Sequence record: OQ446694.1
Source of the DNA: Escherichia phage Killian
Length of the DNA: 64,000 nucleotides
Strand: one strand, 5' to 3'
Shown here: piece by piece, positions 6,949 through 53,165 of the stretch
Position numbering within the stretch: position 1 is the stretch's first letter
Layout: every line of letters begins with the position of its first letter
The notes under the pieces: model-generated
What the model saw: the letters and a program-made list of their open reading frames with translations, nothing else
The model's database searches: none
What the model was told of the DNA's origin: nothing
Position numbers and translations under genes: made by a program

Positions 6949-9645
6949 TCAGCCAAACAGGAAGTCTAACGAAGCTTTTTCTTCATAGTCCATACCCGCC
7001 GATTCACACATGCCCGCAAGCGGTTTAACAAACGATTTTTGGAACAAAGTTGAGTAGTCAATCCAAGACAGTACATCAGAACGAATTTCTTTTGGAAGTT
7101 CTGTGCCTGATGGCCAAGCAATGCACTTGTCACCAAATGGATTTCCTTCACGTAATGGAAGAACCATTACCTTATTTCCATCCAAAATTGGAGCTACACC
7201 TAAACCGCTAACAGCTCGACGATAAGTTAGCACACCACGAATATGGAACGGACATTTAAATCCTGGCCAACCTTTATCATCATATTTCGCTATATCGTTC
7301 GCAGTTTTTACTTCAGCAATAACTTTATAGTCAAGTTGACGATATTCTTTCTCAAAGTTCTTGTAGTATTCTTGGACAGACTCTTCGCCTTCCTGAAGAA
7401 TACGACGAATACTTTCTTCGAGAGCTTCTTGTACTGCTTTTGGTGTTGAACTCTGCTGAGTTTCCATACCCATGATTTTTAGATGTGGTTCAGCAAATCG
7501 CTTATCTTCCATATCATAAACGTTCAGAGCATAACGTTTTTTCGCTTTCCAAAATCCACCAACACCCTTTGAACCAAGCGGAGGACAAGAAATAGCTTCA
7601 CGGTCCATATGCATCAGATGCTCGCGGTTATTCATATAATCACATAACTCACGATATGCAACATCAATCATAGGTTCCATCTTTTTCTTACCAAACTGAT
7701 TCATGAATTCAACTAAATCATTTTGTTCTTTAAAGCGATCAAGACCTACTTTTTCAATTACTTTATCTACACAAACATATACCGAATCAGTATCACCTGC
7801 TGCGATGAAATCTTCACCATTAGTTCCACACACTTTATTTAGATATTCATTAATTTTGCGAGCAATCCACTGAATACCGACTTGACCGAAAATTGTGATA
7901 GCAGTAGCATTTCGCAAATCATAGTAGCGGAAATGAATATTACCAAGAGCACCATAAAGACTGTTAATAAGAATTTTACGGTTCAGCTGATTTGTGTTAG
8001 CAAGTGTAGCAGCTTTTTCACATTCTTCAATCAGACTGTTAAGAACAGATTCGGTGTAATTCGATAATTCGTTTAAGAAATCATCATTGAACTTAACATA
8101 TCGTTCAACTTCCGGTTTAGTTGAACAAGACCCTGCACCTTTCATAATAATCTTTTTAATAGCTTCGGCATTCATTTCTTCAGCGAACATTTTCTTTTTC
8201 CAATCTTTACGCTGGAAAAATACTTTAGCGATTTCCTTTGGAATGATACCTTCTTGATGCTTATCATACATCCATCCATTCGGAGAACAAGAATATTCAT
8301 CACTTGGCTTAGGAGCTGTTCCTGCGATATATTCATGAATTGGATGAACTTTAAATTGCCCGCGAATAGTCTCAGGACTAATGTTAACCTGACGAATAAT
8401 GCTAGGATACAGAGACGTCAAGTCAAAACTCATAATGTATCGACGAGCAATCGGTTTAGGTTCAAACACAAATGCACCTGGAAAACTCTGTTTAACGTGC
8501 GAACCTTGTTGAGGAATAACCTTATGTTCACCTTTCAGTGAGTTAAAAATAATAGCATCCCAAGTTTTAATAGGACTCATTACACCAGAAAAAGGCATTT
8601 TAGCGTAATAAGACATACTTAAAACTAGATCGATAAACCCACGAATTTTATCAATTGCTTGAACTGATTCTACGTCAATGATGTTATAACTAATGTATCG
8701 TTGATGATTAGTCTCACGAAGTTTATTAATAGGACCATCGTACGGCAATTTACCTTTTTTGGTTTCATGTTGAGCAACTGATTCCAAAGAGAACGATGGC
8801 AAATTAGTAAATGCGAATTTCTTGTACAAATCTAAATAATCAAGAATAGATACGCCATCAATAGAATAAATTTCTTTACTACCGTACATATTTTGAATTA
8901 GTTTAGATTTTACTCGACCGATTGGAGAGAAACGTTTCATACTACGTTCACCGAGAACCATTTTAACACGATTCATGATATACGGAACGTCAAATCCCTC
9001 AATATTCCAACCAGTAAAAATAGCAGGTCGTTTCTGTTCCCAGAGATTAATATATTCCATGAGCATATCACGCTCATTATCAAATGGCATATAAATTACT
9101 CGGTCAAGAATTTCTTGAGGAACTTCATCACCACCTTCACAGTCAAGCTTAGCAGCTAACTTTGCGTCCCATTTTGATACTGAACCGTACATTGAATTCA
9201 ACAAATCAAAGACGTAAAAACGATCGTCAATTGAATCATAATGAGTGATAGCATCAATTTCATATTCTGCTTTCATTGGGTCAGGAAATTTATCACCAGT
9301 AACCTCAATGTCACAGTTAGCTACACGAACAAATTTTCGGTCATAAACAATTTCTGAACCATATGTATCACTGATATAAGCGAGTTTAAAATCGTTCATA
9401 CCGAGAGCTTCGAGACCAATGTCTTCCATTCGTTTCATCCAGTCTCGTGCATCTTTCATTGATGGAAATTTTTGAGGAGCACAATTTTTACCATAAATGT
9501 CTTTGTATTTTGACTCTTCCTTACAATGCCTAAACATAGTCGGAAGATATTCTACTTCACGGGTACGTTCCTTTCCATTTTCATCAATATAACGTTCAAC
9601 AATATTATTTCCGACTGTTTCGATAGAGATATAAAATTCTTTCAT
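6949..9645 (-). CDS. 43: DNA polymerase gp43 (family B)
   Basis: 898 aa; exo and pol motifs including YGDTDS; T4 length. Confidence 0.97.
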   Translation of the reverse strand: MKEFYISIETVGNNIVERYIDENGKERTREVEYLPTMFRHCKEESKYKDIYGKNCAPQKFPSMKDARDWMKRMEDIGLEALGMNDFKLAYISDTYGSEIVYDRKFVRVANCDIEVTGDKFPDPMKAEYEIDAITHYDSIDDRFYVFDLLNSMYGSVSKWDAKLAAKLDCEGGDEVPQEILDRVIYMPFDNERDMLMEYINLWEQKRPAIFTGWNIEGFDVPYIMNRVKMVLGERSMKRFSPIGRVKSKLIQNMYGSKEIYSIDGVSILDYLDLYKKFAFTNLPSFSLESVAQHETKKGKLPYDGPINKLRETNHQRYISYNIIDVESVQAIDKIRGFIDLVLSMSYYAKMPFSGVMSPIKTWDAIIFNSLKGEHKVIPQQGSHVKQSFPGAFVFEPKPIARRYIMSFDLTSLYPSIIRQVNISPETIRGQFKVHPIHEYIAGTAPKPSDEYSCSPNGWMYDKHQEGIIPKEIAKVFFQRKDWKKKMFAEEMNAEAIKKIIMKGAGSCSTKPEVERYVKFNDDFLNELSNYTESVLNSLIEECEKAATLANTNQLNRKILINSLYGALGNIHFRYYDLRNATAITIFGQVGIQWIARKINEYLNKVCGTNGEDFIAAGDTDSVYVCVDKVIEKVGLDRFKEQNDLVEFMNQFGKKKMEPMIDVAYRELCDYMNNREHLMHMDREAISCPPLGSKGVGGFWKAKKRYALNVYDMEDKRFAEPHLKIMGMETQQSSTPKAVQEALEESIRRILQEGEESVQEYYKNFEKEYRQLDYKVIAEVKTANDIAKYDDKGWPGFKCPFHIRGVLTYRRAVSGLGVAPILDGNKVMVLPLREGNPFGDKCIAWPSGTELPKEIRSDVLSWIDYSTLFQKSFVKPLAGMCESAGMDYEEKASLDFLFG

Positions 9646-14995: not shown

Positions 14996-15182
14996 TATCT
15001 AAAATGTTGAAGTTAAAAGATACAGCCCAGTCAGTGCAGACCGTAACCTTTTTAATACAATTATCTTCAACCTCTAGCGGTTCAAACCAATATTCAATAA
15101 TTTCTTTATGCCCAATATCATCTTTTACTTCGCATTCAAAATGCTGACTCATCATAACATTTTTAAATTCATCAAAAGTCAT
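14919..15182 (-). CDS. hypothetical protein (46.2-like)
   Basis: 87 aa ORF. Confidence 0.45.
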   Translation of the reverse strand: MTFDEFKNVMMSQHFECEVKDDIGHKEIIEYWFEPLEVEDNCIKKVTVCTDWAVSFNFNILDNDTPKSLQDMAVSCIKDAYCEVFDI

Positions 15183-16198
15183 TGTGTTGCCTCTACATAT
15201 AACTGATTTGCATATTGAATAAGTGCTTCGCGGTCAGAATCAGTGATGTCTGGAATTGCATTAATGTATTCTTCCATCAATGTCTGAAGAGATTGAACTT
15301 CAACTTCTTCACTATCATCTGACTCAACAGAGTTATCAATCTTTGACACAACTCGTAATGAATGCACAACTTTTTCTAGTTCAGATTCGAACTTCGTCAG
15401 ATTTTTGTCTACCTCAGTTACTATAACACGTACTGATAGATTTGTAAAATCTTTATAGTCAATTTTTCCCTTAAATGGATATTGAATTCGACGATGCCAG
15501 GTAGTGTTGTTTGGAATAAATTCCATTCGTTCTGTTTCTGTATCAAACATCCAGAACCCACGAGGGTCATTCTCGTCACCTGCAGTTAGTGTCCATGGTG
15601 TCCCAATATATCTGACGTTAGCAGCCTCAGAGATAGTATGGAAGTGACCAGACCACACTTCTTTATAAGTCTTAAGGAAATCAGGTTCAAGACCGTGAGA
15701 TTTCATTCCTTTATAAAAATAAAATCCATTCAGTTCCCAGTGACCAACACAAAAAGAAGCAGATGAAGTTTTGATGTGTTCAAGAATTTCACCAGTATTT
15801 TCTTCACACATCCAAGGAATTAAATCAATCAAACATCCGTCAAAATCTACTGTAGTAGGCTTATCATATACTTTAACATTAGGATATTTAGCCAAAAGCT
15901 CAGTAGAAGCATTTGGATGCATTACATTTTTGTAGTGGAGATCGTGATTTCCTACAATAGTATGTAATGTGATTCCAGCGTCATCAAGCATTTGAACTAT
16001 TTCACGGGCAAACTCCATAGTTTTATGCGTGATCGCTTTTCGTACATCAAAAATATCACCGTATTGAATCCATACAGTAATTCCATTTTTCTTAGAATAT
16101 TCTATCGCTTGCTTAATTCCGTCAAGTTGAATACCGCGAATCCATTCATCATCAGCTTTAACGCCTAAATGCCAATCACCCAAGTTTAGTATTTTCAT
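15179..16198 (-). CDS. 47: recombination nuclease subunit gp47 (Mre11/SbcD-like)
   Basis: 339 aa; phosphoesterase motifs DWHLG, GDIFD, GNHD. Confidence 0.95.
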   Translation of the reverse strand: MKILNLGDWHLGVKADDEWIRGIQLDGIKQAIEYSKKNGITVWIQYGDIFDVRKAITHKTMEFAREIVQMLDDAGITLHTIVGNHDLHYKNVMHPNASTELLAKYPNVKVYDKPTTVDFDGCLIDLIPWMCEENTGEILEHIKTSSASFCVGHWELNGFYFYKGMKSHGLEPDFLKTYKEVWSGHFHTISEAANVRYIGTPWTLTAGDENDPRGFWMFDTETERMEFIPNNTTWHRRIQYPFKGKIDYKDFTNLSVRVIVTEVDKNLTKFESELEKVVHSLRVVSKIDNSVESDDSEEVEVQSLQTLMEEYINAIPDITDSDREALIQYANQLYVEATQ

Positions 16199-16799
16199 GG
16201 TGTCTTTTCCATCCTAATTTAGCTGCTTTTGAAACTAGTTCTTTAATTTTTCCTTTTGTCCATTCAGGACCAGGAGGTTCATGACATAACATTTGCTTAA
16301 CTCCGTTATTATACCATTTTTTACCTTTATTATGTGATGAAGCTTTAAATTTATTTGACCTTCCTTTTACATAACCTTCTGGAATATACGGCAAAAAGGC
16401 AGATTTTCCTGTTAATGGGTCATGTGAATGTATATTTCCTTTACAATTATGAGAACCATATAATGGATGATTTTGTCCTTTAATATCTCTTCCAAATGAA
16501 CCTTTTGGAGCAGCATATGACATATTAAAGAATAATGGATTTTTAACCGCATCATGCAAACGTTGATAATATAGCTCGCATTTAATAGCTTCTTCGCGCG
16601 TATCAAATTCATCTAAAATGCATGAATCAAATAAATGTGGGTTATCTGAAAGTTCTTCATTATAAATTTTCTTATACTTTTTAGATAAAACTGATCCATG
16701 ATATCCGGCTAAATGCCTATCTAAAGATGTAGATCCAATATAAAAAGGAGGAAGTTTATCTCCACTATATATTGTTAAATAAGTTATATATTTTTTCAT
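16176..16799 (-). CDS. freestanding homing endonuclease, GIY-YIG-like with NUMOD-type repeats
   Basis: 207 aa; N-terminal IY...YIG motif; repeated NHPLYG-type motifs; inserted between 47 and a-gt, overlapping the 47 start. Confidence 0.55.
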   Translation of the reverse strand: MKKYITYLTIYSGDKLPPFYIGSTSLDRHLAGYHGSVLSKKYKKIYNEELSDNPHLFDSCILDEFDTREEAIKCELYYQRLHDAVKNPLFFNMSYAAPKGSFGRDIKGQNHPLYGSHNCKGNIHSHDPLTGKSAFLPYIPEGYVKGRSNKFKASSHNKGKKWYNNGVKQMLCHEPPGPEWTKGKIKELVSKAAKLGWKRHHENTKLG

Positions 16800-16802
16800 A
16801 TA

Positions 16803-16936
16803 TCAAGAACCGTCATTGAAATGCAAAATAAAATTATTGAAATAAATCCATCTGGAGTGCTAAAGAACCCAATCCAACACGCTCTAGTAAATAGATAAAA
16901 CGCTAGAAAAAGTATCACATATCCAAGAAATATCAT
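16803..16936 (-). CDS. small hydrophobic peptide
   Basis: 44 aa minus ORF below track threshold, read by hand. Confidence 0.25.
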
Positions 16937-16960
16937 TATATCAAACTCCGTATAAAGCTA

Positions 16961-16977
16961 AAGGGCCGAAGCCCTTT
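16961..16977 (-). terminator. C(UUCG)G tetraloop hairpin upstream of a-gt
   Basis: AGGGC-CGAA-GCCCT. Confidence 0.45.
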
Positions 16978-18178
16978 ATTTTGTAATAATGTCAAACTGT
17001 TCTTTAAAACAGAAGCTTGAATCTTGATGCTGATACAAAAATTCATAAGCTTTTTCGCGTTCACGGTCATAAAGAGTTCGGTCAGATGACAGTTCTTTAA
17101 TACGCTCAAATGTTGATTCCATGTCATTTTCATCAAACCAAACGATACCGCTATCATGAGAAATTAACGGAGTATTATCAACACGGAATTTTAAATTTTC
17201 GCCAGTAGATTTCCAAAATACTGGAATTGTTCCACATGCACCAAGCTCGAGATGAGTATATTCTAAAGAACGTTGTAGATATTTTTTATCCAACTTACTC
17301 AGCTGATAACCAAATCCGGATTTACTCATACGTTCAAGCATTTCGCTATTTACATAACGGTCAAGAATTTGCGTCGGCAAATTAGGAGCAATTTTAATTT
17401 GGTCTACTTGATGAAGACGATAATACTCGTATGGAATTCCTTTTTCTTTAATAGGAATGAACGCTGGAGAACGTTCCAGACCTTCCATAATAGTACTTAG
17501 TCCTGCAGGTTTAAGATGTTTTTCATGAAAATCAAACATCTGATAAAAGCCTTTCCATGTAGTAGTACGACCAATCCAACGGTTGATATTCATGTTAATT
17601 TCAGAAACATCTTTCCAGTAGGTTGATCGAACCTTCGCAATATCCATAGGAGGCTGAAAGTTATATACGGTCGGTGCTTCTTCAATATCATCAAACAGAG
17701 AAACTGTTTCTGGATACCATTCTTTCATTAAAACTTTATTAAAATCGCCATTATCAGAATGACTAAAAATAACATCAGCTCGACGAACAGTTTCTTCTAA
17801 TCCCAAATTTCGGCGTAAAGAAAGAGAAGAATGGTCATGCTGATAAACTACAACACGAACCGAAGGTTTAATATTATCAATAATTTTTTTATAGTTATTA
17901 ATTGTGTCTTCTTCTACTGAAGTAGCAGGAACTGAATTGATAATTAGAATATCACAATCATTTACCAGCTTAAGTGTTTTATCGTATTCTTTTGCCAATA
18001 AAACCGGAATTGAAAATGACTTATAATCATGTGCGCAATTACGAGTAAATGATTTATCTTTAGCATAAACCAAAGTTACTTCATGACCATTTTTAATAAA
18101 CCAATCACGTTGCTCAAGAGAAAATTTAGTTACACCACAACCTTCAAGACCTCGAGCCATAAAAATACATACTTTCAT
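16976..18178 (-). CDS. a-gt: DNA alpha-glucosyltransferase
   Basis: 400 aa, MKVCIFMARGLEGCGVTKF...; T4 length and position. Confidence 0.9.
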   Translation of the reverse strand: MKVCIFMARGLEGCGVTKFSLEQRDWFIKNGHEVTLVYAKDKSFTRNCAHDYKSFSIPVLLAKEYDKTLKLVNDCDILIINSVPATSVEEDTINNYKKIIDNIKPSVRVVVYQHDHSSLSLRRNLGLEETVRRADVIFSHSDNGDFNKVLMKEWYPETVSLFDDIEEAPTVYNFQPPMDIAKVRSTYWKDVSEINMNINRWIGRTTTWKGFYQMFDFHEKHLKPAGLSTIMEGLERSPAFIPIKEKGIPYEYYRLHQVDQIKIAPNLPTQILDRYVNSEMLERMSKSGFGYQLSKLDKKYLQRSLEYTHLELGACGTIPVFWKSTGENLKFRVDNTPLISHDSGIVWFDENDMESTFERIKELSSDRTLYDREREKAYEFLYQHQDSSFCFKEQFDIITK

Positions 18179-18230
18179 TTAATATCCTCATTGTTTTGGT
18201 TTATTTTACCAAAAATTTATAAAGCAATAT

Positions 18231-18246
18231 AGGAGCCGAAGCTCCT
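18231..18246 (-). terminator. UUCG tetraloop hairpin downstream of a-gt
   Basis: AGGAGC-CGAA-GCTCCT. Confidence 0.45.
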
Positions 18247-18418
18247 ATCCGCATAATACGCCATACAGAGGCTCATTAGAGCTTCTAAATTTTATACACT
18301 TATATGTTATAGTTCCTTCTGCTTTAGCTTTATCATGAGACTCTTTAAAACGTCTCATCATTTCTACTTTAGAGGAACGAATTTTATTATAATCTATTTC
18401 AGAAGTCTGGGTGTTCAT
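18245..18418 (-). CDS. hypothetical small protein
   Basis: 58 aa minus ORF read by hand in the gap upstream of a-gt. Confidence 0.3.
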   Translation of the reverse strand: MNTQTSEIDYNKIRSSKVEMMRRFKESHDKAKAEGTITYKCIKFRSSNEPLYGVLCG

Positions 18419-18421
18419 CTT

Positions 18422-18628
18422 TCACAGTTGCCACCATTTTTTGACTTGATAAGAATCAACCCACACTTTCATATTAGGGTCTGCTCTTACAATAGGAGGA
18501 TTAACTTCTTTGATTGAACTATCATGGTATTCTTTTTCAGAAATTTTCACGCAAAGATGACCATTCAAAGATTCAGTAAATCCTGCATTAATTTTAAGAC
18601 GCTTGAATTTTACGTGTGTAAGCATCAA
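18422..18628 (-). CDS. hypothetical small protein
   Basis: 68 aa ORF. Confidence 0.35.
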   Translation of the reverse strand: MMLTHVKFKRLKINAGFTESLNGHLCVKISEKEYHDSSIKEVNPPIVRADPNMKVWVDSYQVKKWWQL

Positions 18629-18911
18629 TCATATCCTCAATCTGCGATCTAGTAGTCTTCCAAAGAATACTAATGAGTTCATCGTTATATGGCTGTTTTA
18701 GAATATCCCGACTTTTCTTGATAGCATATTCGTATTGAGCGAAATTATTGTTTTCAGCTGCAATCTGAGCGTGTTTATAAAGACGGTTCAGTTCGCGTTT
18801 ATTTTTAGACAATAACTTATTTGCTTTTCTTTCTGCTTCAAGACGGTTCTTTTCTTCAATAGAAGAAATAAGCTTTTCCACTTCATCATTAATTTCGGGT
18901 TTATCAGTCAT
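18594..18911 (-). CDS. hypothetical coiled-coil protein
   Basis: 105 aa ORF. Confidence 0.45.
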   Translation of the reverse strand: MTDKPEINDEVEKLISSIEEKNRLEAERKANKLLSKNKRELNRLYKHAQIAAENNNFAQYEYAIKKSRDILKQPYNDELISILWKTTRSQIEDMIDAYTRKIQAS

Positions 18912-18912
18912 A

Positions 18913-19131
18913 TTATTTCTCTAATATAAAATAAAAATCATCATCTGTTAAATGATACCGATAGTTTAATTCTACACCATTAGATTTAAAAGCGGTATCA
19001 TACGGATTTTCTGGATCAATATCAATGTCAAGAGCTAAAACTTCCCTGAGATACATTTTAAGTAAATAGGGAATAGCTTCAACTTCAGGTATTTCTTCCA
19101 AGAATCCGGAGAGGTTAATCGTTAGCCTCAT
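18913..19131 (-). CDS. hypothetical small protein
   Basis: 72 aa ORF. Confidence 0.45.
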
Positions 19132-19678
19132 ATAAAAAATCCAAACTAGGAGAATCGTCTACAACACTTTTCTTTTCAGCCCCTGGTGTTCTATAGGTTG
19201 ATTCTTCGTAATGCGTCATTTTATCGTAGATGTCTTGAATAAAAGTTTCATCTACTAACGCAACCATATCGTCGTCACGACTGTCATAGACATTGTGAAC
19301 GAAGTAACTATATTTCTTTGCAACTTCCTTACGTTCTTTTTTAATACGTTGGACGAATGCATTAAAACAAGCTTGAGTTATATATGCATGTGGGTTTTTA
19401 TATTTCGTTTCATCAAAATTATGAAGTCCCTTAATAGAAGCTTCTATACCATCTGCAATCATTTCTTGTTTCCAAGATTGGGTGTATCCTGAAAAGTTGA
19501 AACGTTTAGATAAGCCTTCTGCAATAAGCATAATGGCTAATCCGATAGTATCATTCTGACGAACTACTTTATTTGGGTCTTTATTATTTGCTAATTCTGT
19601 TTTCCAATCAATAATAGCTTGTAAAAGCTCTTTATTGTTTACGTAATTATATTTAGGCTTAGTTTCTGACATTTTCAC
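19115..19678 (-). CDS. 55: late-transcription sigma factor gp55
   Basis: 187 aa; T4 position. Confidence 0.9.
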
Positions 19679-19750
19679 CTCTTAGCTCAATTCATAGATC
19701 TATTATATCATAATATTTGAAGATCTATCTTAAAGCATAGAGGATATCAG

Positions 19751-20020
19751 TTATCTAAGTAAACAGTATGCTTGGAACACTTTCTCCATCATCTTTTTAA
19801 ATTCATGAATATCTATGTAATGACTAGTTAAATCAGCATGATATAAAAAGTCTAAAAACTTTTCATGTGTGCTAACATATTCGCTTTCATTTAATTCAGA
19901 AACATGGCTTTCCCAATATCCAACACCAGTCTTATTTGGGAAAAATGAAATTTTCATGTATTGGTCAACATAGAAAATTCCATAATTTTCAATAGTAATA
20001 GAAATATTAATAAATTTCAT
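19751..20020 (-). CDS. hypothetical protein
   Basis: 89 aa ORF. Confidence 0.45.
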   Translation of the reverse strand: MKFINISITIENYGIFYVDQYMKISFFPNKTGVGYWESHVSELNESEYVSTHEKFLDFLYHADLTSHYIDIHEFKKMMEKVFQAYCLLR

Positions 20021-20232
20021 GCATTCATCAACTTAGCCGCTTCAAGAGCTGCATCTAGTGAATCAAATTGGTCAACGTATTCAATCAATTCGCCATAATT
20101 GGCGTATAACCACCATTGGCTAAATTCATACTCAAGGATGAATCCATTTCCTTCAATTTGAGTTAAACCAATGCCATTTGTATTTACTTCATATCCGGCA
20201 AGACGCAAATCGTTAATAAGAACTTCGTTCAT
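20017..20232 (-). CDS. hypothetical protein
   Basis: 71 aa acidic ORF. Confidence 0.45.
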   Translation of the reverse strand: MNEVLINDLRLAGYEVNTNGIGLTQIEGNGFILEYEFSQWWLYANYGELIEYVDQFDSLDAALEAAKLMNA

Positions 20233-20234
20233 AA

Positions 20235-20561
20235 TTATGCCTTAGTAATTTTCAGGTCAGCAAATTTTTTCTTGCGTTGATTTTTCATACGACGAATAGT
20301 TTTATCGGAAATTTCATGTTTTTGATAAGCTTTAGATTCTACACCAAAAGCTTTAACATCAAATTCTGACAAAATATATTGAACCAACAATTCACGGACA
20401 GTATTGCGTCCAATTTTCTGATCATTCTGTTTCATCGTCTGATGAAGTTCTTTTTCCCATTTATCCAAAATTTGAGGAGTTACAATATCGCCTTTTTCTA
20501 GCAAAGAAACTACTTTATCATATGCATAAGAATTGATGGCGTTTTTAATTTGAATAGTCAT
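20235..20561 (-). CDS. hypothetical protein
   Basis: 108 aa ORF. Confidence 0.45.
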   Translation of the reverse strand: MTIQIKNAINSYAYDKVVSLLEKGDIVTPQILDKWEKELHQTMKQNDQKIGRNTVRELLVQYILSEFDVKAFGVESKAYQKHEISDKTIRRMKNQRKKKFADLKITKA

Positions 20562-20600
20562 ACATTATCCTCAATTACATTAAAATTTTATTATCCAAAA

Positions 20601-20616
20601 AAGGGCCGAAGCCCTT
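20601..20616 (-). terminator. C(UUCG)G tetraloop hairpin
   Basis: AGGGC-CGAA-GCCCT. Confidence 0.45.
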
Positions 20617-20815
20617 AGCTAAACTGTTTGGCACCCTTCCAGCCTTCGTACATCATTGCGGCTGATATTAATATTGCTCCTGCGCATTTTGAATATTTGT
20701 GATTCCAAAACCAGTTTAGAAAAACTTCGTCATCAATACCTTGAGCTATCATATTTTCAAAGAACTGACGACGAGCTTCAGCAATTCGTTGCGATAATTT
20801 AGATTCAGGATTCAT
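20615..20815 (-). CDS. hypothetical small protein
   Basis: 66 aa ORF following a hairpin. Confidence 0.4.
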   Translation of the reverse strand: MNPESKLSQRIAEARRQFFENMIAQGIDDEVFLNWFWNHKYSKCAGAILISAAMMYEGWKGAKQFS

Positions 20816-20950
20816 TTAAATTTTCCAGTTACCATTTTCATCAATAAATTTAATCCAGTCATTTACTGACCACTTGGTCGTATCGCCTTTTGGAGCAACA
20901 TTTAAAGTGTATAATCCTTGTTTAAAAAGCATGCGTTTGATATTCATATT
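20816..20950 (-). CDS. hypothetical small protein
   Basis: track ORF 20816..21031 trimmed to an internal Met to avoid overlap. Confidence 0.3.
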   Translation of the reverse strand, partial: NMNIKRMLFKQGLYTLNVAPKGDTTKWSVNDWIKFIDENGNWKI

Positions 20951-20954
20951 TTCC

Positions 20955-21248
20955 TCAGCTGTAACGATAGCACTCGTTTGATTTACGCTTAGCAACTCGT
21001 TGAGAAGTATTGTAATCAAAATCATCGTCAATGTAAACTGATTTTTTCAACTTTCTTACTTCACCACGTAATTGGCGATTTAACTCATCTTTAACTTCTG
21101 AATCAATGCCTTTCATTCTACGCCATTTATCAGAGCGAAAAATGTTTTCGACCATATCTTTATGACTTACACCATCAGGAGCTTTACGCTTTCCAAAATA
21201 GTCATAATCACGCACTTTTAAATCTTTACGACGATACGTTTTACCCAT
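20955..21248 (-). CDS. hypothetical basic protein
   Basis: track ORF 20955..21293 trimmed to MGKTYRR start adjacent to upstream stop. Confidence 0.4.
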   Translation of the reverse strand: MGKTYRRKDLKVRDYDYFGKRKAPDGVSHKDMVENIFRSDKWRRMKGIDSEVKDELNRQLRGEVRKLKKSVYIDDDFDYNTSQRVAKRKSNECYRYS

Positions 21249-21423
21249 GGAGTTTAATTTCCTTAGCAACTGAACTAAATACAGCACGATCACAAATCAT
21301 CTGTTTATGTAACTTGAGTATAAGATAATAAACTTCAAAGCCGTTTACATAAGTAACACGAACAACATTACCATTAATAAAATAATACTGTCCCTTTTTA
21401 ATTTCTTTATCAACCACAACCAT
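21241..21423 (-). CDS. hypothetical small protein
   Basis: 60 aa ORF directly downstream of an early promoter. Confidence 0.4.
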   Translation of the reverse strand: MVVVDKEIKKGQYYFINGNVVRVTYVNGFEVYYLILKLHKQMICDRAVFSSVAKEIKLHG

Positions 21424-21449
21424 ATCAATTCCTCAAAGGCAATTCATGT

Positions 21450-21486
21450 GTTAATAATACCACAGTTTGAACTTCTTGTAAACAAC
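21450..21486 (-). promoter_or_regulatory. T4-type early promoter (-35 GTTTACA, -10 TATTAT)
   Basis: sigma70-like hexamers at 17 nt spacing upstream of ORF 21241..21423. Confidence 0.55.
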
Positions 21487-21580
21487 TTTGTGAAAATTAT
21501 TTTAGGGAACGATAAGAAGGGAACGATAGTTAGAATGGTAATATACAGAATGTGAGAAAGAAAGGCCCAGAGGGCCCATC

Positions 21581-21889
21581 TTAGTCTTCTATGATATCTC
21601 TATCATATCCAAGTGAAATGAGAGTTTCTTTGAAGTGTTTAATGTTCTTTTGTCTAGAATCATTGATGAAAATGACTGGATAACGAATGTTAAGAGATGT
21701 GAATCCAGCGCGTTTAGCAAGAGATACAATCAGTGGACGATCATACTCAATCTTACCATTATTTGTAAGAACTTTATAGAAAGTAAAAGGAGCATTGAGC
21801 TCCTTTAGAAGTTTTGTAACTGATTGACATCCAGGACAACGACCTACTTCATCTGGAATTCCATAGACTTCAATCTTGTTTTGTTTCAC
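21581..21889 (-). CDS. nrdH: NrdH-like glutaredoxin
   Basis: 102 aa; CPGC redox motif. Confidence 0.75.
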   Translation of the reverse strand: MKQNKIEVYGIPDEVGRCPGCQSVTKLLKELNAPFTFYKVLTNNGKIEYDRPLIVSLAKRAGFTSLNIRYPVIFINDSRQKNIKHFKETLISLGYDRDIIED

Positions 21890-21891
21890 AA

Positions 21892-22104
21892 CTATTCCTT
21901 ACTAAGAGCAGCATTCAGCTTATTAGTAATTTTATCCAGACGCTCATTGAACTCGCTAGAAGATAGTCCTTTTTCTGGAGAAATTAAGCTAATCACGAAA
22001 AATATAGCAATAAAAGGAATAAGAAAAATAGCACCAACTGCCATAAACAAAAAGAACGTTACAGTTGTAAGAAAATCAGCTAAACCTTTACGAAATTTAT
22101 ACAT
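21892..22104 (-). CDS. small membrane protein
   Basis: 70 aa with one hydrophobic helix. Confidence 0.4.
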   Translation of the reverse strand: MYKFRKGLADFLTTVTFFLFMAVGAIFLIPFIAIFFVISLISPEKGLSSSEFNERLDKITNKLNAALSKE

Positions 22105-22219
22105 ATTTTACCCTTAATTGATTAACCAAGCATTGATAAGCACTAAACTATATTGTGAATAAAATTCTGGACCAAAATGAAAAATCATATCATTTATAGT
22201 GTCCATAATATAATTCAAT

Positions 22220-22690
22220 TTAATCATGTTTCCACACCCCATCGGTATTTGACCAAAGTCGCTGATTATCTGATCCTCGCCACAGCTTTTTGGTCGGAAG
22301 ATTTTTCTCATACTTCCCATCAATAATAACATCAACATATTTAAGCATTTCTAGTTGTTTAATATCCTCAAACTTATATCCTGTCCACAACCAAATGCTT
22401 TTATTTGGATAAAGATTTTTTACTGTTTGAACAATGCAATGAACAACATCTCGGTTATCAGGATAGAGAGGGTCTCCTCCAGTTATAGTTAATCCTTCTA
22501 TATAATCATTATTCAAACATTCAATTAATTGTTCCAGTGTTTCACCAGTGAATGGAACGCCATTTCTAGCATTCCACGTTGATTTATTATAACACCCTTC
22601 GCATTTATGCAAACAACCTGTAACGAAAAGAACGACCCTGCATCCAGGGCCATTCACAAAATCGCAGGGATAAAATCTATCGTAATTCAT
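22220..22690 (-). CDS. nrdG: anaerobic ribonucleotide reductase activating protein NrdG (radical SAM)
   Basis: 156 aa; CxxxCxxC cluster motif CLHKCEGC. Confidence 0.9.
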   Translation of the reverse strand: MNYDRFYPCDFVNGPGCRVVLFVTGCLHKCEGCYNKSTWNARNGVPFTGETLEQLIECLNNDYIEGLTITGGDPLYPDNRDVVHCIVQTVKNLYPNKSIWLWTGYKFEDIKQLEMLKYVDVIIDGKYEKNLPTKKLWRGSDNQRLWSNTDGVWKHD

Positions 22691-24504
22691 TGGTGTTTAA
22701 CCCTATGCATGATTTCTTTATTTTTGCCGAGATTAAATCCGCGTTCATTCGGATTTCCCAAATAACCACAAGTTCTTCTTATTGTGTTCATCTTTTTAGG
22801 ATCAGTTTCTCCACAAATAGAACAAACAAACCCGTTTTCAGTAGGAGTCATTTCATGGGTACTTCCGCATGTAAAACATTTATCTACTGGCATATTAACA
22901 CCAAAATAATCTAAATGTTGTGCAGCATAATCCCATACAGCCTCAAGACCTTTTAGGTTATTTTTCATATCAGGAAGTTCAACATAAGAAATGTGACCAC
23001 CTGTCGCAATGAAATGATATGGGGCTTCGCGAGAAATCTTTTCAAATGGAGTAATATTTTCTTCTACCGAAACGTGGAAACTGTTAGTGTACCAGCCTTT
23101 ATCGGTAACATCTTTTACACTTCCATATTTTTCGGTATCAAGTTTACAGAAGCGATAGCACAGGTTTTCAGCAGGTGTAGAATACAAACTAAAAGCAAAA
23201 CCGGTTCTTTCAGTCCACTGCTTAAGATGAGCATTCATTTTAGTTAAAATTTCTTGTCCAATATCACGACCGACAAGAATATTCAATTCGTGAATACCAA
23301 TGTATCCTAGGGACACTGAACTTCTACCGTTTTTAAATAACTCAATTATATCGTCATCAGGTTTAAGACGAACCCCGAATGCACCTTCTTGATAAAGAAT
23401 AGGAGCAACAGTCGCTTTAACTCCTTTTAAGGAACTAATTCTACACATCAAAGCTTCAAAACACAAATCCATTCGTTCATTGAACAATTCAGCAAATTTC
23501 TGTTCATTGAACTGTGTTCCAATATAAGAATCTAGTGCAATGCGAGGAAGATTCAGTGTTACAACACCAAGATTATTACGTCCATCAAGAATTTCATTAC
23601 CAGTCGAATCTTTCCATACACCCAAGAAACTACGACAACCCATTGGAGAAACAGGAATAGATGAACCGGTGATAGCTTTATTGTTCTTAGCTGAAATAAT
23701 ATCAGGATACATTCTTTTGCTTGCACACTCTAGAGCAAGCTGCTTAATATCATAGTTTGGATCGTCTTTATAAAGATTAACACCTTCTTCAACGAACATA
23801 ACAAGCTTAGGGAAAATAGGAGTTATCCCATCACGACCAAGACCTTTAATACGATTTTTCAGAATTGCTTTCTGAATCATTCGTTCAGTCCAGTCAGTTC
23901 CCGTACCAAATGTAATTGTTACAAAAGGCGTTTGTCCGTTTGAACTAAAGAGAGTATTTACTTCATATTCATAAGCTTGGAATGCATCGTATACGTCTTT
24001 TTCTGTTTTAGACTGGGCGTAATTCAACGCATCAGCGATTTGCCATTTTTCTGCGTCCTCAATATGTTTTGCGTAGGTGCGTTTAACATAAGGAGAAAGG
24101 ACTTTATCTACATTCGCAAAAGTCGTTCCGCCATATTGATGGGAAGCAACCTGCGCAGTAATTTGTGCCATAATTGCAGTAGCAACGCCGATTGATTTAG
24201 GAGTTTCAATCTGCGCATTACCGAGCTTAAATCCATTCTCAAGCATTCCTTTTAAATCGACTAAACAGCAATTAGTAAAAGGCAATGATATACTGTAATC
24301 TAAATCATGAAAATGAATTAATCCAACATTATGTGCATTTACAATATGACTTGGAAGAATACGACAAGCGATATGTTTAGAAACAATACCGGCCATTAAA
24401 TCTCTTTTTGTTGGAAAGACACGAGAATCTTTGTTGGCGTTTTCGGTATTTAATTCTTTATCTTTATTTGAAATAAAATTTAAAACATCTTTCTCTAAAG
24501 ACAT
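22687..24504 (-). CDS. nrdD: anaerobic ribonucleoside-triphosphate reductase NrdD
   Basis: 605 aa uninterrupted; C-terminal glycyl radical motif RRTCGYLG and Zn-ribbon cysteines. Confidence 0.95.
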   Translation of the reverse strand: MSLEKDVLNFISNKDKELNTENANKDSRVFPTKRDLMAGIVSKHIACRILPSHIVNAHNVGLIHFHDLDYSISLPFTNCCLVDLKGMLENGFKLGNAQIETPKSIGVATAIMAQITAQVASHQYGGTTFANVDKVLSPYVKRTYAKHIEDAEKWQIADALNYAQSKTEKDVYDAFQAYEYEVNTLFSSNGQTPFVTITFGTGTDWTERMIQKAILKNRIKGLGRDGITPIFPKLVMFVEEGVNLYKDDPNYDIKQLALECASKRMYPDIISAKNNKAITGSSIPVSPMGCRSFLGVWKDSTGNEILDGRNNLGVVTLNLPRIALDSYIGTQFNEQKFAELFNERMDLCFEALMCRISSLKGVKATVAPILYQEGAFGVRLKPDDDIIELFKNGRSSVSLGYIGIHELNILVGRDIGQEILTKMNAHLKQWTERTGFAFSLYSTPAENLCYRFCKLDTEKYGSVKDVTDKGWYTNSFHVSVEENITPFEKISREAPYHFIATGGHISYVELPDMKNNLKGLEAVWDYAAQHLDYFGVNMPVDKCFTCGSTHEMTPTENGFVCSICGETDPKKMNTIRRTCGYLGNPNERGFNLGKNKEIMHRVKHQ

Positions 24505-25316
24505 AATTCTAATTTATCCTTTTGAAATTCTTCGTCTAAATATGGGTTCCAACCCATTTTAAACCTTTTGATGAAATTATCAATTCTAAATTTCGGTAAG
24601 TTTAAATCCGCAAAAATAGATGATTTACTTTTAAAATCTGGACCTAAATAATCATATAAAATTTCTGCGTATTTTAACCATAATATACAAGTACCAGATT
24701 TAATTGCTCTCGGAGTTTTCCAAGGTTTTACACCATACATCGGATTTCCACTTCCTTTATGCCTGATAGAAGATGAAATTCCAATTTTAATTTTAGCTTC
24801 CTTTGTATGCGAAAATCCACGATGCGGATTTTCTTTCCAGTATTTTTTAGAAGCTTCTGATATTTTCTTTCTGGCTAAATTAGTATGATGCTTTCCATAA
24901 AATCCATGATTTTTGCCTTTATTACGATTTCTTTTAATCATGGTTATTGATTGCTTTTCTCTAGTTTCTTTAGAAGGAGAAATACCATATGTCGTAAATT
25001 TGCCATCAGCATATGCTAAATTAAAATACTCTTTATTCCATACATCTTTTTCTATATTCTTTTGAAATTCAGCTTCAATGCTAGTTATTTGTTCATCTCC
25101 GACTAATTGAAAATATAATATTTCAACTTTCGGCGTTTCTTTCAACAGGGCTTTTTGAAATTCGGAAGATGACGAAGACGAATAATAAAATTTACCATTT
25201 TTATCAATAATATTCGTTCCGTCAAAAGTGCAATTGGTTTTACTTCCAATATAATAATATGGTGGGGTTTTAGCATTAATTCTACTAATAAATGATAGTT
25301 TATATACTACATTCAT
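24495..25316 (-). CDS. freestanding homing endonuclease-like protein (GIY-YIG-like N-terminus, NUMOD-type repeats)
   Basis: 273 aa; YYIGS motif; repeated NHGFYG/NPMYG motifs; between nrdD and 49. Confidence 0.55.
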   Translation of the reverse strand: MNVVYKLSFISRINAKTPPYYYIGSKTNCTFDGTNIIDKNGKFYYSSSSSSEFQKALLKETPKVEILYFQLVGDEQITSIEAEFQKNIEKDVWNKEYFNLAYADGKFTTYGISPSKETREKQSITMIKRNRNKGKNHGFYGKHHTNLARKKISEASKKYWKENPHRGFSHTKEAKIKIGISSSIRHKGSGNPMYGVKPWKTPRAIKSGTCILWLKYAEILYDYLGPDFKSKSSIFADLNLPKFRIDNFIKRFKMGWNPYLDEEFQKDKLELCL

Positions 25317-25786
25317 TTTAAACTCTTTCTAAGCTGCTTCTTAAATGAAGCTATTAATTGTGTTTTAGTGTCAGATTCATTATATTCAAATCCTCTTTGA
25401 AGCATCTCAGCCATCATTTCCTCTTTTCCTAAACGAGAAAATTCCTTTGATTTATCTCCAACGAAGTTAGGGTGAATATTATTTTGGGTGTAATCGGATT
25501 TTAAATAAGTAAGTAAATTTTCTAACCATTCAAGATAATCAACGCCTTGTCCCTTTAAGCCAGAACGATTAAATTTGTGTTTCATTTGACCTTCCGCTGC
25601 ATTGCAAAGATTACAGAGCAATCCACGTACCTTTCCTGCTTTTGGTCCATTTAATTCATGGTCATGGTCGAGGTGATTAGCTTGAACATCAGGATTTAGT
25701 TCTCGTTGGCAAATTAAGCATTTACCGTTTTGTGCATTATAAAATTTTTGTTTTTCTTCTTTGTATAATTTGCCAGTCAATAACAT
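25313..25786 (-). CDS. 49: endonuclease VII gp49 (Holliday junction resolvase)
   Basis: 157 aa; Zn-binding cysteines and HLDHDHELN His-Me finger. Confidence 0.9.
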   Translation of the reverse strand: MLLTGKLYKEEKQKFYNAQNGKCLICQRELNPDVQANHLDHDHELNGPKAGKVRGLLCNLCNAAEGQMKHKFNRSGLKGQGVDYLEWLENLLTYLKSDYTQNNIHPNFVGDKSKEFSRLGKEEMMAEMLQRGFEYNESDTKTQLIASFKKQLRKSLK

Positions 25787-25828
25787 AATTAAACCCTTAC
25801 CTTAAATAGATAAGGGTATTTATTATTT

Positions 25829-26332
25829 TCAAGTATTGTAAAACATTTGATGCAATCGCTTATATTGCCGAATCTTTTGGTCAGAAAAAGAAATTTGAGT
25901 TTCAAGCCATTCAATATATTCTGCTGCAGCTTGCATTAAATTTCCTTCATAACCATCATTATTTTCTTGTGCAGCTAATTTAGCTAATGCATATGAAATA
26001 CGTTCACCTTGAAAAGCGGCTTTAGGTTTATGAAGAGCTTGATCAACTCGTTCTACAACTTCTTCAATTTCGCCATTTTCCGCTGATTCAGTATTCCACA
26101 AGCACCAATACGTAATTGGCTTATCATAGATGTTAATAATCTTTCCATCAGAAAGTTCAATTTCAATAATTCCAGTATCAGGTTCTATATCATCTTCGCA
26201 TTCTTTTGCAAGTTCACGAACTTTAAAGACAGTACCTGCACTAAGTTCCGGCCAGTAATTACACAGCCCTTTATCAGCACGATTAATTCTAAACCACTTA
26301 TCTACTGCAATCATGTCCCATCTCCATATCAA
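25829..26332 (-). CDS. hypothetical protein (pin / 49.x position)
   Basis: 167 aa ORF. Confidence 0.45.
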   Translation of the reverse strand: MIWRWDMIAVDKWFRINRADKGLCNYWPELSAGTVFKVRELAKECEDDIEPDTGIIEIELSDGKIINIYDKPITYWCLWNTESAENGEIEEVVERVDQALHKPKAAFQGERISYALAKLAAQENNDGYEGNLMQAAAEYIEWLETQISFSDQKIRQYKRLHQMFYNT

Positions 26333-26437
26333 TTAAGTCGTTTATCGTCGGTTCATTATATACTGTTTCTTCATCAGTGTAAACCGGTTCTTCCGGCTCT
26401 GGCTCTACTGTTTCCCATCTAGCCGCCCACCAAGGTT

Positions 26438-26758
26438 TTATAGCGTAATCCATTCTCGTACTGTCTGAGTTACTACACGTTCACGGGGCTCGACTAGTTC
26501 AACAGTCGGAACTGCATAATACCAGTCAGAATGATAAGAACCTGAGCGAGATTCATTTACGGAAACATGTACATTGTGTTTTGGACTAAAATAAACACAC
26601 TGACGATATTGGCATTTACCATCTTGCACCCAGTCTTTTATTTCGACAGGTTTAAGATAATCCGAAAAATCGAAATCATAATTTTCTGAAAATGCATCAT
26701 GGTCTTCGATGATTTCACTCAGAACTGCATCAACATCTAATTTATTTTCAATATTCAT
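26438..26758 (-). CDS. hypothetical protein
   Basis: 106 aa ORF. Confidence 0.45.
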   Translation of the reverse strand: MNIENKLDVDAVLSEIIEDHDAFSENYDFDFSDYLKPVEIKDWVQDGKCQYRQCVYFSPKHNVHVSVNESRSGSYHSDWYYAVPTVELVEPRERVVTQTVREWITL

Positions 26759-26768
26759 TTTTCACCAA

Positions 26769-27158
26769 TTAATTTCGCAATTTATTAAGTTCTTCATAAT
26801 CAATCCAGGATTCTAGTCCTGATGGCAAATCAGATTCAATTTCCCAAAGAAGTTCTTCAATTTTCTGAAGACGATCTAATTCTTCAGCAGGAATAGTAAC
26901 CATTGACGGAGTTCTTGATACGCTAATATCGTAAATCATATTTACCCCCAGTTTGACCATACAATCGCCATATTTCCATTTAGAAATAGACTTTTCACCA
27001 TTAGAATAATAAACTTCAAGTTTAGCACGATTATTTTTAATTTGAATAACCTTTGCTGTCATCAAAGTTCCATACCCATAATAAACTGCAACCTCATCAC
27101 CTACATATACCGCGCTTCCGCGGTAGTCATGGATATAATCAGTTCCTTCGAGCATCAT
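26769..27158 (-). CDS. hypothetical protein
   Basis: 129 aa ORF. Confidence 0.45.
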   Translation of the reverse strand: MMLEGTDYIHDYRGSAVYVGDEVAVYYGYGTLMTAKVIQIKNNRAKLEVYYSNGEKSISKWKYGDCMVKLGVNMIYDISVSRTPSMVTIPAEELDRLQKIEELLWEIESDLPSGLESWIDYEELNKLRN

Positions 27159-51241: not shown

Positions 51242-51318
<77 letters not shown>

Positions 51319-51321
51319 TAA

Positions 51322-51987
51322 TTAAAATTTCATTTTTCGACCTTTAAACCATCCTTCTGGAATTGGGTCAGTTTTCTTAATACGTTTAGAAACTTTTTCA
51401 TCTAATGAATGAATCCACATCATACCAAATTGGGAATTCTTTTCGCCCTGTTGATGTTTATTTCTGGCGTGAGATTCTTTCATTTTATTAATAGTTTCAG
51501 GAGTATGGGTCTTGCCCAAGAAAGATTTAGTATTTAAAAATTTCTCTCTATACTTAGGATTATCCCAAAGCTGTTTAAACCTTTCTGAACCCATTTTACG
51601 ATATTTTTCTTTAAGGTCTGGGTCGTTCTCAAATCTGGTTTTAAAAGCGGCAGCTCCTTTTAAGGAAGCTTCTTTCTTTTTATCCAAATATTCTTTAGTG
51701 TTTAAATGGTCCCAACCACCTTCACCACCTAATTTCAAATTATAAACATCAGGGCGCTTTAAAAACTCTTCAGTCACAATATTCTTTTCTGACTCAAACA
51801 TAGAGGTTTTATCGTCAAAGAACTCTAATATTTCTTTAGAAAAATTTTCTATACCATACTTATCTTGGGCTCTTTTTAATAATTTACCAGAACCCATATA
51901 TCCATCATCTAAATTTTCGGTAGAATGAGCGCCTATATAGATTTTATTATTAATTTTATTTGTTATTTTATAAATGTAATGGAACAT
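51322..51987 (-). CDS. segB: GIY-YIG homing endonuclease (SegB-like) inside the tRNA island
   Basis: 221 aa; YIYKITN...KIYIGA GIY-YIG motif; lies between tRNA subclusters as T4 segB does. Confidence 0.65.
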   Translation of the reverse strand: MFHYIYKITNKINNKIYIGAHSTENLDDGYMGSGKLLKRAQDKYGIENFSKEILEFFDDKTSMFESEKNIVTEEFLKRPDVYNLKLGGEGGWDHLNTKEYLDKKKEASLKGAAAFKTRFENDPDLKEKYRKMGSERFKQLWDNPKYREKFLNTKSFLGKTHTPETINKMKESHARNKHQQGEKNSQFGMMWIHSLDEKVSKRIKKTDPIPEGWFKGRKMKF

Positions 51988-52028
51988 AAATATCTCCTAT
52001 TTCTAAGAGTATTTATGTTCCCAAAATA

Positions 52029-52100: not shown

Positions 52101-52106
52101 TTGATA

Positions 52107-52179: not shown

Positions 52180-52186
52180 GAAATTA

Positions 52187-52273: not shown

Positions 52274-52275
52274 AG

Positions 52276-52349: not shown

Positions 52350-52361
52350 TAAATTAAATTT

Positions 52362-52532: not shown

Positions 52533-53165
52533 TTATTTATTACGTGAAAAAGATTGTTCTATCAATTCTGGACACTTTCGTTCTATCCATTTTCTAGCTT
52601 TTTGTGGGCTTATACCTATTATTTTAGCAGCTTTACTAACCCATCCAAATTTAGAATAATCGATTTTAACTAATTCTTCGTAAATTTCATCAGTTAAAAT
52701 CTTTTCATTAATATTTACCAGTAAATGATATAATTTATTATCATTAGCAATTTTAATGAATCTTTTATAGTTTCCGCCTTTACTTAAACCTAATGAAGTA
52801 ATTGCAGATGATATAGTAGCCGAATTTAATAGTGCGTTTAAAATTTCTTCATCACTAACATTATAACGCTTTTTATTATTTTTAATATTTTTACCAGCAA
52901 AAGTATCAGTTTGCGAATGGCAATTTGGACATAATAATCTTAAATTTGATTTAAGATGATTTTTGTTATTTCCATCAATATGGTCTAATTGCAGAACAAT
53001 ATGCTTATTTTGCCATTTTGAAATTTTACAAATTGCACACTCATATGGAAAAATATTTTCTTTTATTATTTTGTCTTTCAGCTTTCCTGTACTAAAATTT
53101 GGATGTTTTCCTTCAAAAATTTCAGCTAATTTAGTATCCATAATATAATTCCCAATTATTAACAA
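52533..53165 (-). CDS. HNH homing endonuclease
   Basis: 210 aa; CxxC...HIDGNNKNH...CPNCH HNH/Zn motif; abuts tRNA-Leu. Confidence 0.65.
   Translation of the reverse strand: MLIIGNYIMDTKLAEIFEGKHPNFSTGKLKDKIIKENIFPYECAICKISKWQNKHIVLQLDHIDGNNKNHLKSNLRLLCPNCHSQTDTFAGKNIKNNKKRYNVSDEEILNALLNSATISSAITSLGLSKGGNYKRFIKIANDNKLYHLLVNINEKILTDEIYEELVKIDYSKFGWVSKAAKIIGISPQKARKWIERKCPELIEQSFSRNK

Follow-up and report, generated by a model that had tools for sequence, protein, structure and literature searches.

T-even phages are a model system for intronless homing and marker exclusion, and to our knowledge targets are known for only a handful of Seg and Mob enzymes. The seg and mob genes have been described as promoter-less cassettes that overlap the upstream open reading frame (ORF) by 11-24 base pairs (bp) and are associated with co-conversion, and the freestanding enzymes cut hundreds of bp away (PMC2988022). 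According to the account of Liu et al. 2003 given in PMC2988022, T4 SegG is a freestanding GIY-YIG endonuclease encoded between genes 32 and 59, which cleaves phage T2 in gene 32; co-conversion starting from this distant cut leads to marker exclusion. Moreover, several seg and mob endonucleases have nrdD and nrdG as their targets (PMC2988022). Here, we describe two ORFs of Escherichia phage Killian (sequence record OQ446694.1) found in a stretch of 64,000 nucleotides (nt), which was analyzed as a whole and is called the window. The window is a piece of a T-even phage's genome, that of a T2/T6-like Tequatrovirus. ORF1 and ORF2 are very probably homing endonuclease genes that belong to the freestanding ('intronless') Seg type of T4 and code for an N-terminal GIY-YIG nuclease and a C-terminal DNA-binding region:

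16176..16799, minus strand: ORF1, probable freestanding Seg-type GIY-YIG homing endonuclease gene, 207 amino acids (aa); nuclease domain at about aa 1-100, truncated NUMOD3-like motif, two beta-hairpin 'PxG(W/Y)xKG' modules, C-terminal helix
24495..25316, minus strand: ORF2, probable freestanding SegG-like GIY-YIG homing endonuclease gene, 273 aa; nuclease domain at about aa 1-105, two NUMOD3 motifs (best stretch aa 130-153), C-terminal helical region

AlphaFold models of both proteins, built from homologue alignments and confident over the N-terminal ~100 residues, displayed an N-terminal GIY-YIG alpha/beta fold. The top structural match was in each case the catalytic domain of I-TevI (PDB 1ln0), with a GIY-YIG restriction enzyme, UvrC, Eco29kI and T4 EndoII as runners-up. 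Within the ORF1 family, whose homologues reach E=1e-137, residues Y7, Y20, I21, G22, E75 and N92 are invariant, and R28 is R or K in most homologues. In the ORF2 family (homologues up to E=1e-180), Y5, Y22, G24, E81 and N99 are conserved in at least 90% of the sequences and K26 is conserved as well. An alignment revealed that the columns of the GIY Tyr, the YIG Tyr/Gly, the Glu and the Asn are common to ORF1, ORF2, T4 SegA-G, I-TevI and I-TevII. An earlier note, made from the letters of this DNA, had assigned GIY-YIG-like N-termini to both ORFs and had named a lack of conserved catalytic residues as evidence to the contrary; the predicted fold and the aligned residues, present in both families, confirmed the assignment. 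ORF1 matched the Pfam GIY-YIG model (PF01541) with E=8e-4 and 20.1 bits, which is under the curated cut-off of 22.6, and the Pfam search of ORF2 gave no GIY-YIG match. Such weak or absent scores are a sensitivity limit of the model for Seg-type sequences. Sequence searches of the PDB returned nothing useful for ORF1 or ORF2. The T4 proteins closest to ORF1 are SegG (E 2e-5) and SegE (E 4e-4), and the first 126 aa of ORF2 are 40% identical to T4 SegG (E 9e-26).

Repeated NUMOD-type motifs, likewise proposed for both ORFs in the earlier note, were recovered in ORF2 but not in ORF1. ORF2 contains two NUMOD3 stretches (Pfam E=6e-7), followed by the C-terminal helical region that is present in a few homologues too. 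The Pfam search of ORF1 yielded no NUMOD match; its sequence contains a truncated NUMOD3-like 'GQNHPLYGSHN' and two 'P-x-G-W/Y-x-K-G' hairpin motifs. NUMOD3 is present in many ORF1 homologues, and the ORF1 family profile touches the I-TevI DNA-binding domain (1i3j) at only E=0.073. With the exceptions of the Pfam threshold, the NUMOD motifs of ORF1 and a counterpart of the catalytic Arg of I-TevI (see below), the family features testable in silico were found.

All sampled copies of the two genes are intact (6/6 for ORF1, 7/7 for ORF2). Ratios of non-synonymous to synonymous diversity (pN/pS) of 0.06 for ORF1 and 0.14 for ORF2 indicate strong purifying selection on both genes. An apparently decayed ORF1 in phages KNP1/KNP5 (64% coverage) was withdrawn as an assembly gap of Ns (Shigella phage KNP5, locus L069, 667-765). 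PHROGs places both proteins in homing endonuclease families. In NCBIfam, a named family was not found for ORF1 and ORF2 gave only a sub-threshold 'group I intron endonuclease' match, while GenBank records name the proteins 'hypothetical protein', 'homing endonuclease', 'HNH endonuclease' or, once, 'SegG homing endonuclease'. Both ORFs lie between genes, with 47 and nrdD as uninterrupted ORFs. An Rfam scan of 15000-26500 detected no group I intron and no other family, so that an intron setting is ruled out.

The surroundings of the two ORFs revealed discrete insertions of 601 bp (ORF1) and 812 bp (ORF2). In the following, alleles with an insertion are called carriers and those with an uninterrupted junction empty alleles. 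The genes and gene segments concerned are:

15179..16198, minus strand: gene 47 (Mre11/SbcD-like recombination nuclease subunit), downstream neighbour of ORF1 and its presumed target
16181..16191, minus strand: nt 8-18 of gene 47, within the ORF1/47 overlap; predicted ORF1 recognition core in empty alleles (ATGAAAATTTTAAATTTAGGTGATTGG)
16796..16936, minus strand: 47.1 homologue, 46 aa, upstream neighbour of ORF1; based on window and T4 sequences and the T4 annotation
16976-18178: a-gt, one small gene beyond ORF1 on the 47.1 side
22687..24504, minus strand: nrdD (anaerobic ribonucleotide reductase large subunit), intron-free here, downstream neighbour of ORF2 and its presumed target
24280..24504, minus strand: diverged nrdD block, the first 225 nt of the gene, which always accompanies ORF2
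25313..25786, minus strand: gene 49 (endonuclease VII), upstream neighbour of ORF2

In both cases the endonuclease ATG takes the exact place that the gene 47 or nrdD ATG has in endonuclease-free relatives, overlapping the upstream stop codon, and the displaced gene starts from a new ATG within the 3' end of ORF1 or ORF2. In T4, the 47.1 stop overlaps the gene 47 ATG (GATATATGAAAATTTTAAATTTAGGTGATTGG). In ORF1 carriers, the ORF1 ATG stands in this place (GATATATGAAAAAATATA...) and overlaps the stop of the 47.1 homologue in ATGA (ATATGA), gene 47 restarts 601 bp on (...CACCATGAAAATACTAAACTTGGGTGATTGG), and a repeated ATGAAAA bounds the insert. The T4 gene 49 stop overlaps the nrdD ATG (AAAATGACA...); in ORF2 carriers it overlaps the ORF2 ATG instead (AAATGA, an overlap of 4 nt with gene 49), and nrdD restarts 812 bp on. 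The insertion boundaries are identical across the sampled carriers, as are the junctions across the sampled empty alleles. The overlaps with the conserved downstream genes, given in the earlier note as a few codons, amount to 23 nt (ORF1/47) and 10 nt (ORF2/nrdD). Its placement of ORF2 between nrdD and 49 was correct as well (24495-25316, minus strand, 273 aa). ORF1, which it had put between 47 and a-gt, does lie beside 47 at 16176-16799 but adjoins 47.1 (16796-16936) rather than a-gt.

As IMG/VR gave only six close relatives, close-relative comparisons were drawn from GenBank phage records. ORF1 DNA was detected in 68 phage records and the uninterrupted 47.1/47 junction in 473, the latter counted as matches to a synthetic 'empty' junction. 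ORF2 DNA occurs in 49 records and the uninterrupted 49/nrdD junction in 638. Both loci thus display the presence/absence polymorphism among relatives by which the earlier note had proposed to check its interpretation. T4 lacks ORF1 and ORF2, and T6 lacks ORF2. All four combinations were seen among 14 aligned genomes:

ORF1 and ORF2 present: the window, Bas43, Lutter
ORF1 present, ORF2 absent: BP32, vB_SsoM_113, phiC600P9
ORF1 absent, ORF2 present: G10400, FJ1, two IMG/VR genomes
ORF1 and ORF2 absent: T4, three IMG/VR genomes

The flanks have mosaic haplotypes, which do not follow the presence of the endonuclease genes. Full-length orthologues of ORF1 (59-81% identity), in which the match overlaps the gene 47 homologue, exist in Salmonella, Klebsiella, Serratia and other T4-like phages. 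Two IMG/VR loci (L020 and L030) lack a-gt and 47.1, yet the orthologue still lies directly against gene 47 or overlaps it. These genera share one junction register, in which the gene 47 start ATGAAAAT (..AT GAA AAT) is read as H/N-E-N at the end of the endonuclease. No intermediate orthologues of ORF2 were found: the full-length gene occurs only in its 49 records, at ≥90% identity, and SegG itself follows as the next relative. Bas43 (TadeuszReichstein, locus L060) carries a third endonuclease gene of 279 aa at 8582-9421, between nrdG and nrdD in the position of T4 mobC, which may be of the SegH type; the window has nothing at this position.

Sequence linked to the insertions was found in both downstream genes. 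In gene 47, four synonymous changes in codons 3-6 (nt 9, 10, 15 and 18) are perfectly linked to ORF1 among 6 carriers and 8 empty alleles, and no ORF1-linked polymorphism was present deeper in the gene in the same alleles. Nearly all T4-like loci compared share the ATGAAAAT start and the N-terminus MKIL.xGDxH. In nrdD, comparison of 7 carriers with 7 empty alleles showed perfect linkage to ORF2 at 81 of the first 225 positions; the same comparison gave no ORF2-linked positions beyond nt 225 or in gene 49. Identity between the two nrdD allele types rises from 53-83% to 93-100% in a sharp step at nt 225/226. At the protein level, the block matches the T4-type allele in 47 of 75 aa and differs in 28. 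The block was present at ≥95% identity in 49 records, equal to the ORF2 count, and all remaining records reached 90% at most; database-wide co-occurrence of block and ORF2 is judged from these record counts (49 and 49). Diversity of nrdD beyond nt 225 is unusable because some genomes have an intron there. In protein sequence, the block reaches no more than 53-63% identity with any other sampled NrdD N-terminus, whereas the corresponding T4-type stretch is 72-99% identical to most NrdD N-termini from other genera. Being an outlier to all of them, the block is foreign or fast-evolved. In four T4-like IMG/VR loci (L010, L011, L018 and L022), the first 75 aa of the T4-type NrdD are 95-99% conserved and NrdD overall is 93-95% identical, while gp47 is only 72-76% identical to that of the window, which suggests that the nrdD region itself may have been exchanged between genera. 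A search of IMG/VR by exact pattern found neither the recoded gene 47 start nor the nrdD block without the endonuclease. The phage collection likewise contained no recoded gene 47 start without ORF1, and a single nrdD block without ORF2, in phage OLB35.

This case, Escherichia phage OLB35 (MH992122, L068 1601-1840), belongs to Mosigvirus. Gene 49 is followed directly by nrdD and the rest of ORF2 is gone, and nrdD starts with the first seven ORF2 codons (MNVVYKL) in frame with the ORF2-linked block. These codons are derived from the endonuclease, because MNxVYK is the first beta-strand of the SegG-type nuclease domain. Compared with the window, nrdD of OLB35 is 87-100% identical over nt 31-240. 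In its gene 49, the last ~110 nt match the window at 96-97% and the remainder at 65-83%. The gene 49 end, the seven codons and the block together form a tract of Tequatrovirus type, which points to a transfer between genera, perhaps by homing, with subsequent loss. On the simplest reading, the cassette came into a Mosigvirus, where an in-frame deletion then removed the endonuclease and left the predicted resistant nrdD block in place.

A carrier must not cut itself, and the recognition sequence must therefore contain a feature in which every empty allele differs from every carrier. Since T-even DNA modification is the same in both allele types, self-protection must lie in sequence differences. 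Exclusion mapping retained those positions of the empty alleles that lie outside any 30-mer shared exactly with a carrier. For the ORF1 site, the only interval common to 8/8 empty alleles was nt 8-18 of gene 47; for the ORF2 site, the only common interval was nt 5-225 of nrdD. From this mapping, the predicted ORF1 site overlaps the 47.1/47 junction together with nt 8-18 of gene 47, in the stretch coding for the conserved N-terminus MKILxxGDxH, and the ORF2 site is predicted within the first 225 nt of T4-type nrdD. These putative positions fit the suggestion of the earlier note that the cleavage sites lie in the corresponding loci of related phages. ORF2 may cut up to ~225 bp from its insertion, as in the usual Seg pattern, and the sharp nrdD boundary would be consistent with a cut near nt 200-225.

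At the 3' end of a-gt, six substitutions lie within 26 bp (window 17143-17168, -369 to -344 from the ORF1 ATG), and this haplotype is present in 5/6 ORF1 carriers and 0/8 empty alleles. It was rejected as a distant ORF1 cut site, as Bas43 combines ORF1 with the empty-type haplotype and orthologues exist in phages without a-gt; it is probably due to hitch-hiking rather than a target site.

No match to the late-promoter consensus TATAAATA was detected near ORF1 or ORF2, and scans for sigma-70-like promoters and terminators near both ORFs remained at chance level except for the known a-gt terminator hairpin. The two ORFs look like promoter-less cassettes inside existing transcription units, in which translational coupling to the upstream gene would permit low-level synthesis of the endonuclease. 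During mixed infection with an endonuclease-free relative, the endonuclease would bind and cut the intact allele, and double-strand-break repair by the phage would copy the endonuclease gene and the DNA up to the cut from the carrier genome. The carrier would escape cutting because the insertion splits its own site and the sequence there is recoded. At the ORF2 locus, the diverged nrdD block would accompany the gene as the immune version of its site. Two traces at the population level, the ORF2-linked nrdD block and the tract imported into OLB35, would fit one-way gene conversion in which flanking markers are co-converted. It is possible, if somewhat short of probable, that ORF2 and the diverged 225 nt of nrdD form a two-part mobile cassette, composed of the endonuclease and a recoded, predicted cut-resistant nrdD 5' end. 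RNA folding was calculated at the start codons, and only the ORF2 start region was more stable than shuffled sequences (z = -3.08; 81 nt, window 25287-25367, minus strand). The start codon is located in a predicted 12-bp A/U-rich hairpin with ORF2 codons 2-10. A regulatory hairpin is not claimed, as the natural variant in phage Lutter (ATGAAC) breaks a pair.

Among the described systems, SegG shares the most with ORF2. Their identity includes MNxVY...PPYYYIGSK...Y.SS...E...YFNL, both genes are freestanding, run in the same direction as their neighbours and have no obvious promoter of their own, and each is linked to a stretch of a neighbouring conserved gene that is co-converted in the case of SegG and may be so for ORF2. 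In contrast, the C-terminal DNA-binding halves are unrelated, ORF2 resides at 49/nrdD instead of 32/59, its ATG replaces that of nrdD, and its target is predicted. With SegF, SegE and the other Seg proteins of T4 ('intronless homing', Belle et al. 2002; PMC2988022), ORF1 and ORF2 share a GIY-YIG domain with 'GY.GS' followed by a DNA-binding region, which is putative in ORF1, ORF overlaps of similar size and a sporadic distribution among T-even phages. ORF1 is only ~27% identical to any T4 Seg protein and differs in having no Pfam NUMOD motif. Its predicted recognition region would overlap the insertion point as for intron-encoded enzymes, and closer than PMC2988022 describes for freestanding ones. 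The invasion of nrdD is shared with I-TevII (nrdD intron), MobC and SegH (nrdG/nrdD junction), but ORF2 is found at the nrdD 5' end beside gene 49, a site unlisted in PMC2988022. I-TevI differs in being intron-encoded, and its helix segment containing R27 is replaced in ORF1, ORF2 and the T4 Seg proteins. By analogy, ORF1 and ORF2 would act like T4 SegF and SegG.

Several points speak against active, recently mobile endonucleases. The catalytic Arg R27 of I-TevI has no obvious counterpart in ORF1 or ORF2. It is likewise absent from T4 SegA-G and I-TevII in the same alignment; because several of these Seg proteins are active, the missing residue is weak evidence against activity (five T4 Seg proteins are given as active in the T4 review, PMC2988022). 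In the literature we found no paper on ORF1 or ORF2 and no cleavage or homing assay of either protein. Synonymous diversity (pS) of ORF1 is about that of its flanks (0.09 vs 0.10), so that ORF1 may be a long-standing resident and not a newcomer. The sharp nrdD boundary could equally result from the conserved nt 226-270 acting as crossover or first usable homology instead of marking the cut, and the OLB35 record is flagged UNVERIFIED. Taken further, such points would suit genes which are domesticated or defunct, i.e. whose GIY-YIG domain no longer cuts and which are kept as DNA-binding regulators or to preserve the start regions of 47 and nrdD. The missing R27 counterpart, the Pfam scores and the flank-like diversity of ORF1 are compatible with this explanation, and the position of the 47 and nrdD start codons inside the endonuclease ORFs would make a simple deletion harmful. 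However, the full-length proteins are under purifying selection, among distant homologues the catalytic Tyr, Glu and Asn show full or near-full conservation, and the active T4 SegG has the same motif pattern as ORF1 and ORF2. OLB35 demonstrates that ORF2 can be removed in frame without loss of nrdD, and both the sporadic distribution and the identical insertion boundaries in all carriers speak against domestication, which we regard as unlikely.

Even smaller is the probability that the polymorphism reflects ancestral genes that were repeatedly deleted and reshuffled by ordinary homologous recombination without homing. T-even genomes are highly mosaic, one ORF2 deletion derivative exists, and ORF1 occupies the same site in several genera, all of which would agree with loss. 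Yet the empty sites (473 and 638 records) are uninterrupted T4-like junctions except in OLB35, and independent deletions would not all restore the ATGA overlap. Furthermore, the ORF2-linked nrdD block is unlike every sampled NrdD lineage, which suggests import and not ancestry, and the nuclease fold has been kept under selection. Finally, ORF1 belongs to phrog_10820, described as 'HNH endonuclease' (E=7.6e-94), and many RefSeq records of the family bear the same label. That ORF1 is indeed an HNH endonuclease has next to no likelihood: an HNH motif is absent, Pfam gave no HNH match, the predicted fold matches GIY-YIG nucleases only, and the GIY...YIG...E...N pattern does not vary within the family. 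The label is a misannotation passed on from record to record. Freestanding Seg-type GIY-YIG homing endonuclease genes therefore remain the preferred interpretation of ORF1 and ORF2.

Two further endonuclease genes are located in the tRNA cluster of the window:

51322..51987, minus strand: SegB orthologue; Pfam GIY-YIG 26.6 bits, narrowly over the cut-off
52533..53165, minus strand: HNH endonuclease ORF beside tRNA-Leu, likely ATG at 53141

The SegB orthologue, which lies between tRNA-Arg and tRNA-Met(CAT), shares 83% identity with T4 SegB. The HNH ORF displays a clear CxxC...HxDH...CPNCH motif and matches the HNH region of IscB in NCBIfam with E=4e-6; its Pfam HNH score (E=0.0057) is under the cut-off. 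It adjoins tRNA-Leu at the site where T4 has tRNA-Gln. ARAGORN predicted 7 tRNAs in the cluster (51242-52526) compared to 8 in T4, and tRNA-Gln was not found up to 54500. The remaining window-specific ORFs yielded no additional endonuclease gene, in agreement with the four freestanding genes in 64 kb counted by the earlier note.

The closest match to the window is Escherichia phage Lutter with 97% identity, and an 11.7-kb region was matched by 1117 phage records. The T4 gene order from ~19.5 kb to 83 kb is kept. Compared with T4, the window lacks segA, b-gt, mobB, mobC, the nrdD intron with I-TevII, mobD and segC, and it contains window-specific segments at several sites, ORF1 and ORF2 among them. 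In place of T4 segA and b-gt, a 282-aa glycosyltransferase (Pfam TAGT, E=1e-9) is encoded at 4127-4975, which is probably the beta-alpha-glucosyltransferase of T2/T6-type phages; this fits the presence of a-gt in the window. T4 gene 49.3 is replaced by a 129-aa ORF at 26769-27158 with a DUF7205 domain, which also resembles, weakly and over a short stretch, the T7 gp5.9 RecBCD-inhibitor family (E=0.0026, not reaching the cut-off).

Genes of this kind are ordinary for T-even phages and would be expected by a specialist in a Tequatrovirus; what is useful here is detail and no new principle, namely where the genes are inserted, how they capture start codons, the nrdD block linked to ORF2 and the remnant in OLB35. 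The two genes add two insertion sites unlisted in the T4 review, 47.1/47 and 49/nrdD. The predicted targets are narrowed down to a core of 11 nt at the start of gene 47 and to 225 nt of nrdD, and the label of the ORF1 family is corrected from 'HNH endonuclease' to GIY-YIG. Phages that naturally carry or lack the genes are available; one of them, the BASEL phage Bas43, has both. If the two-part cassette exists, every homing event would swap 28 of the first 75 NrdD residues. An endonuclease would then directly drive protein-level change in a conserved enzyme and leave readable 'ghosts', and its loss could leave its first codons as a new NrdD N-terminus, as in OLB35. The same reading, if true, would place the ORF1 recognition site across its own insertion point, like that of intron-encoded enzymes, and, with their start codons captured, 47 and nrdD would depend for their translation on that of the endonucleases.

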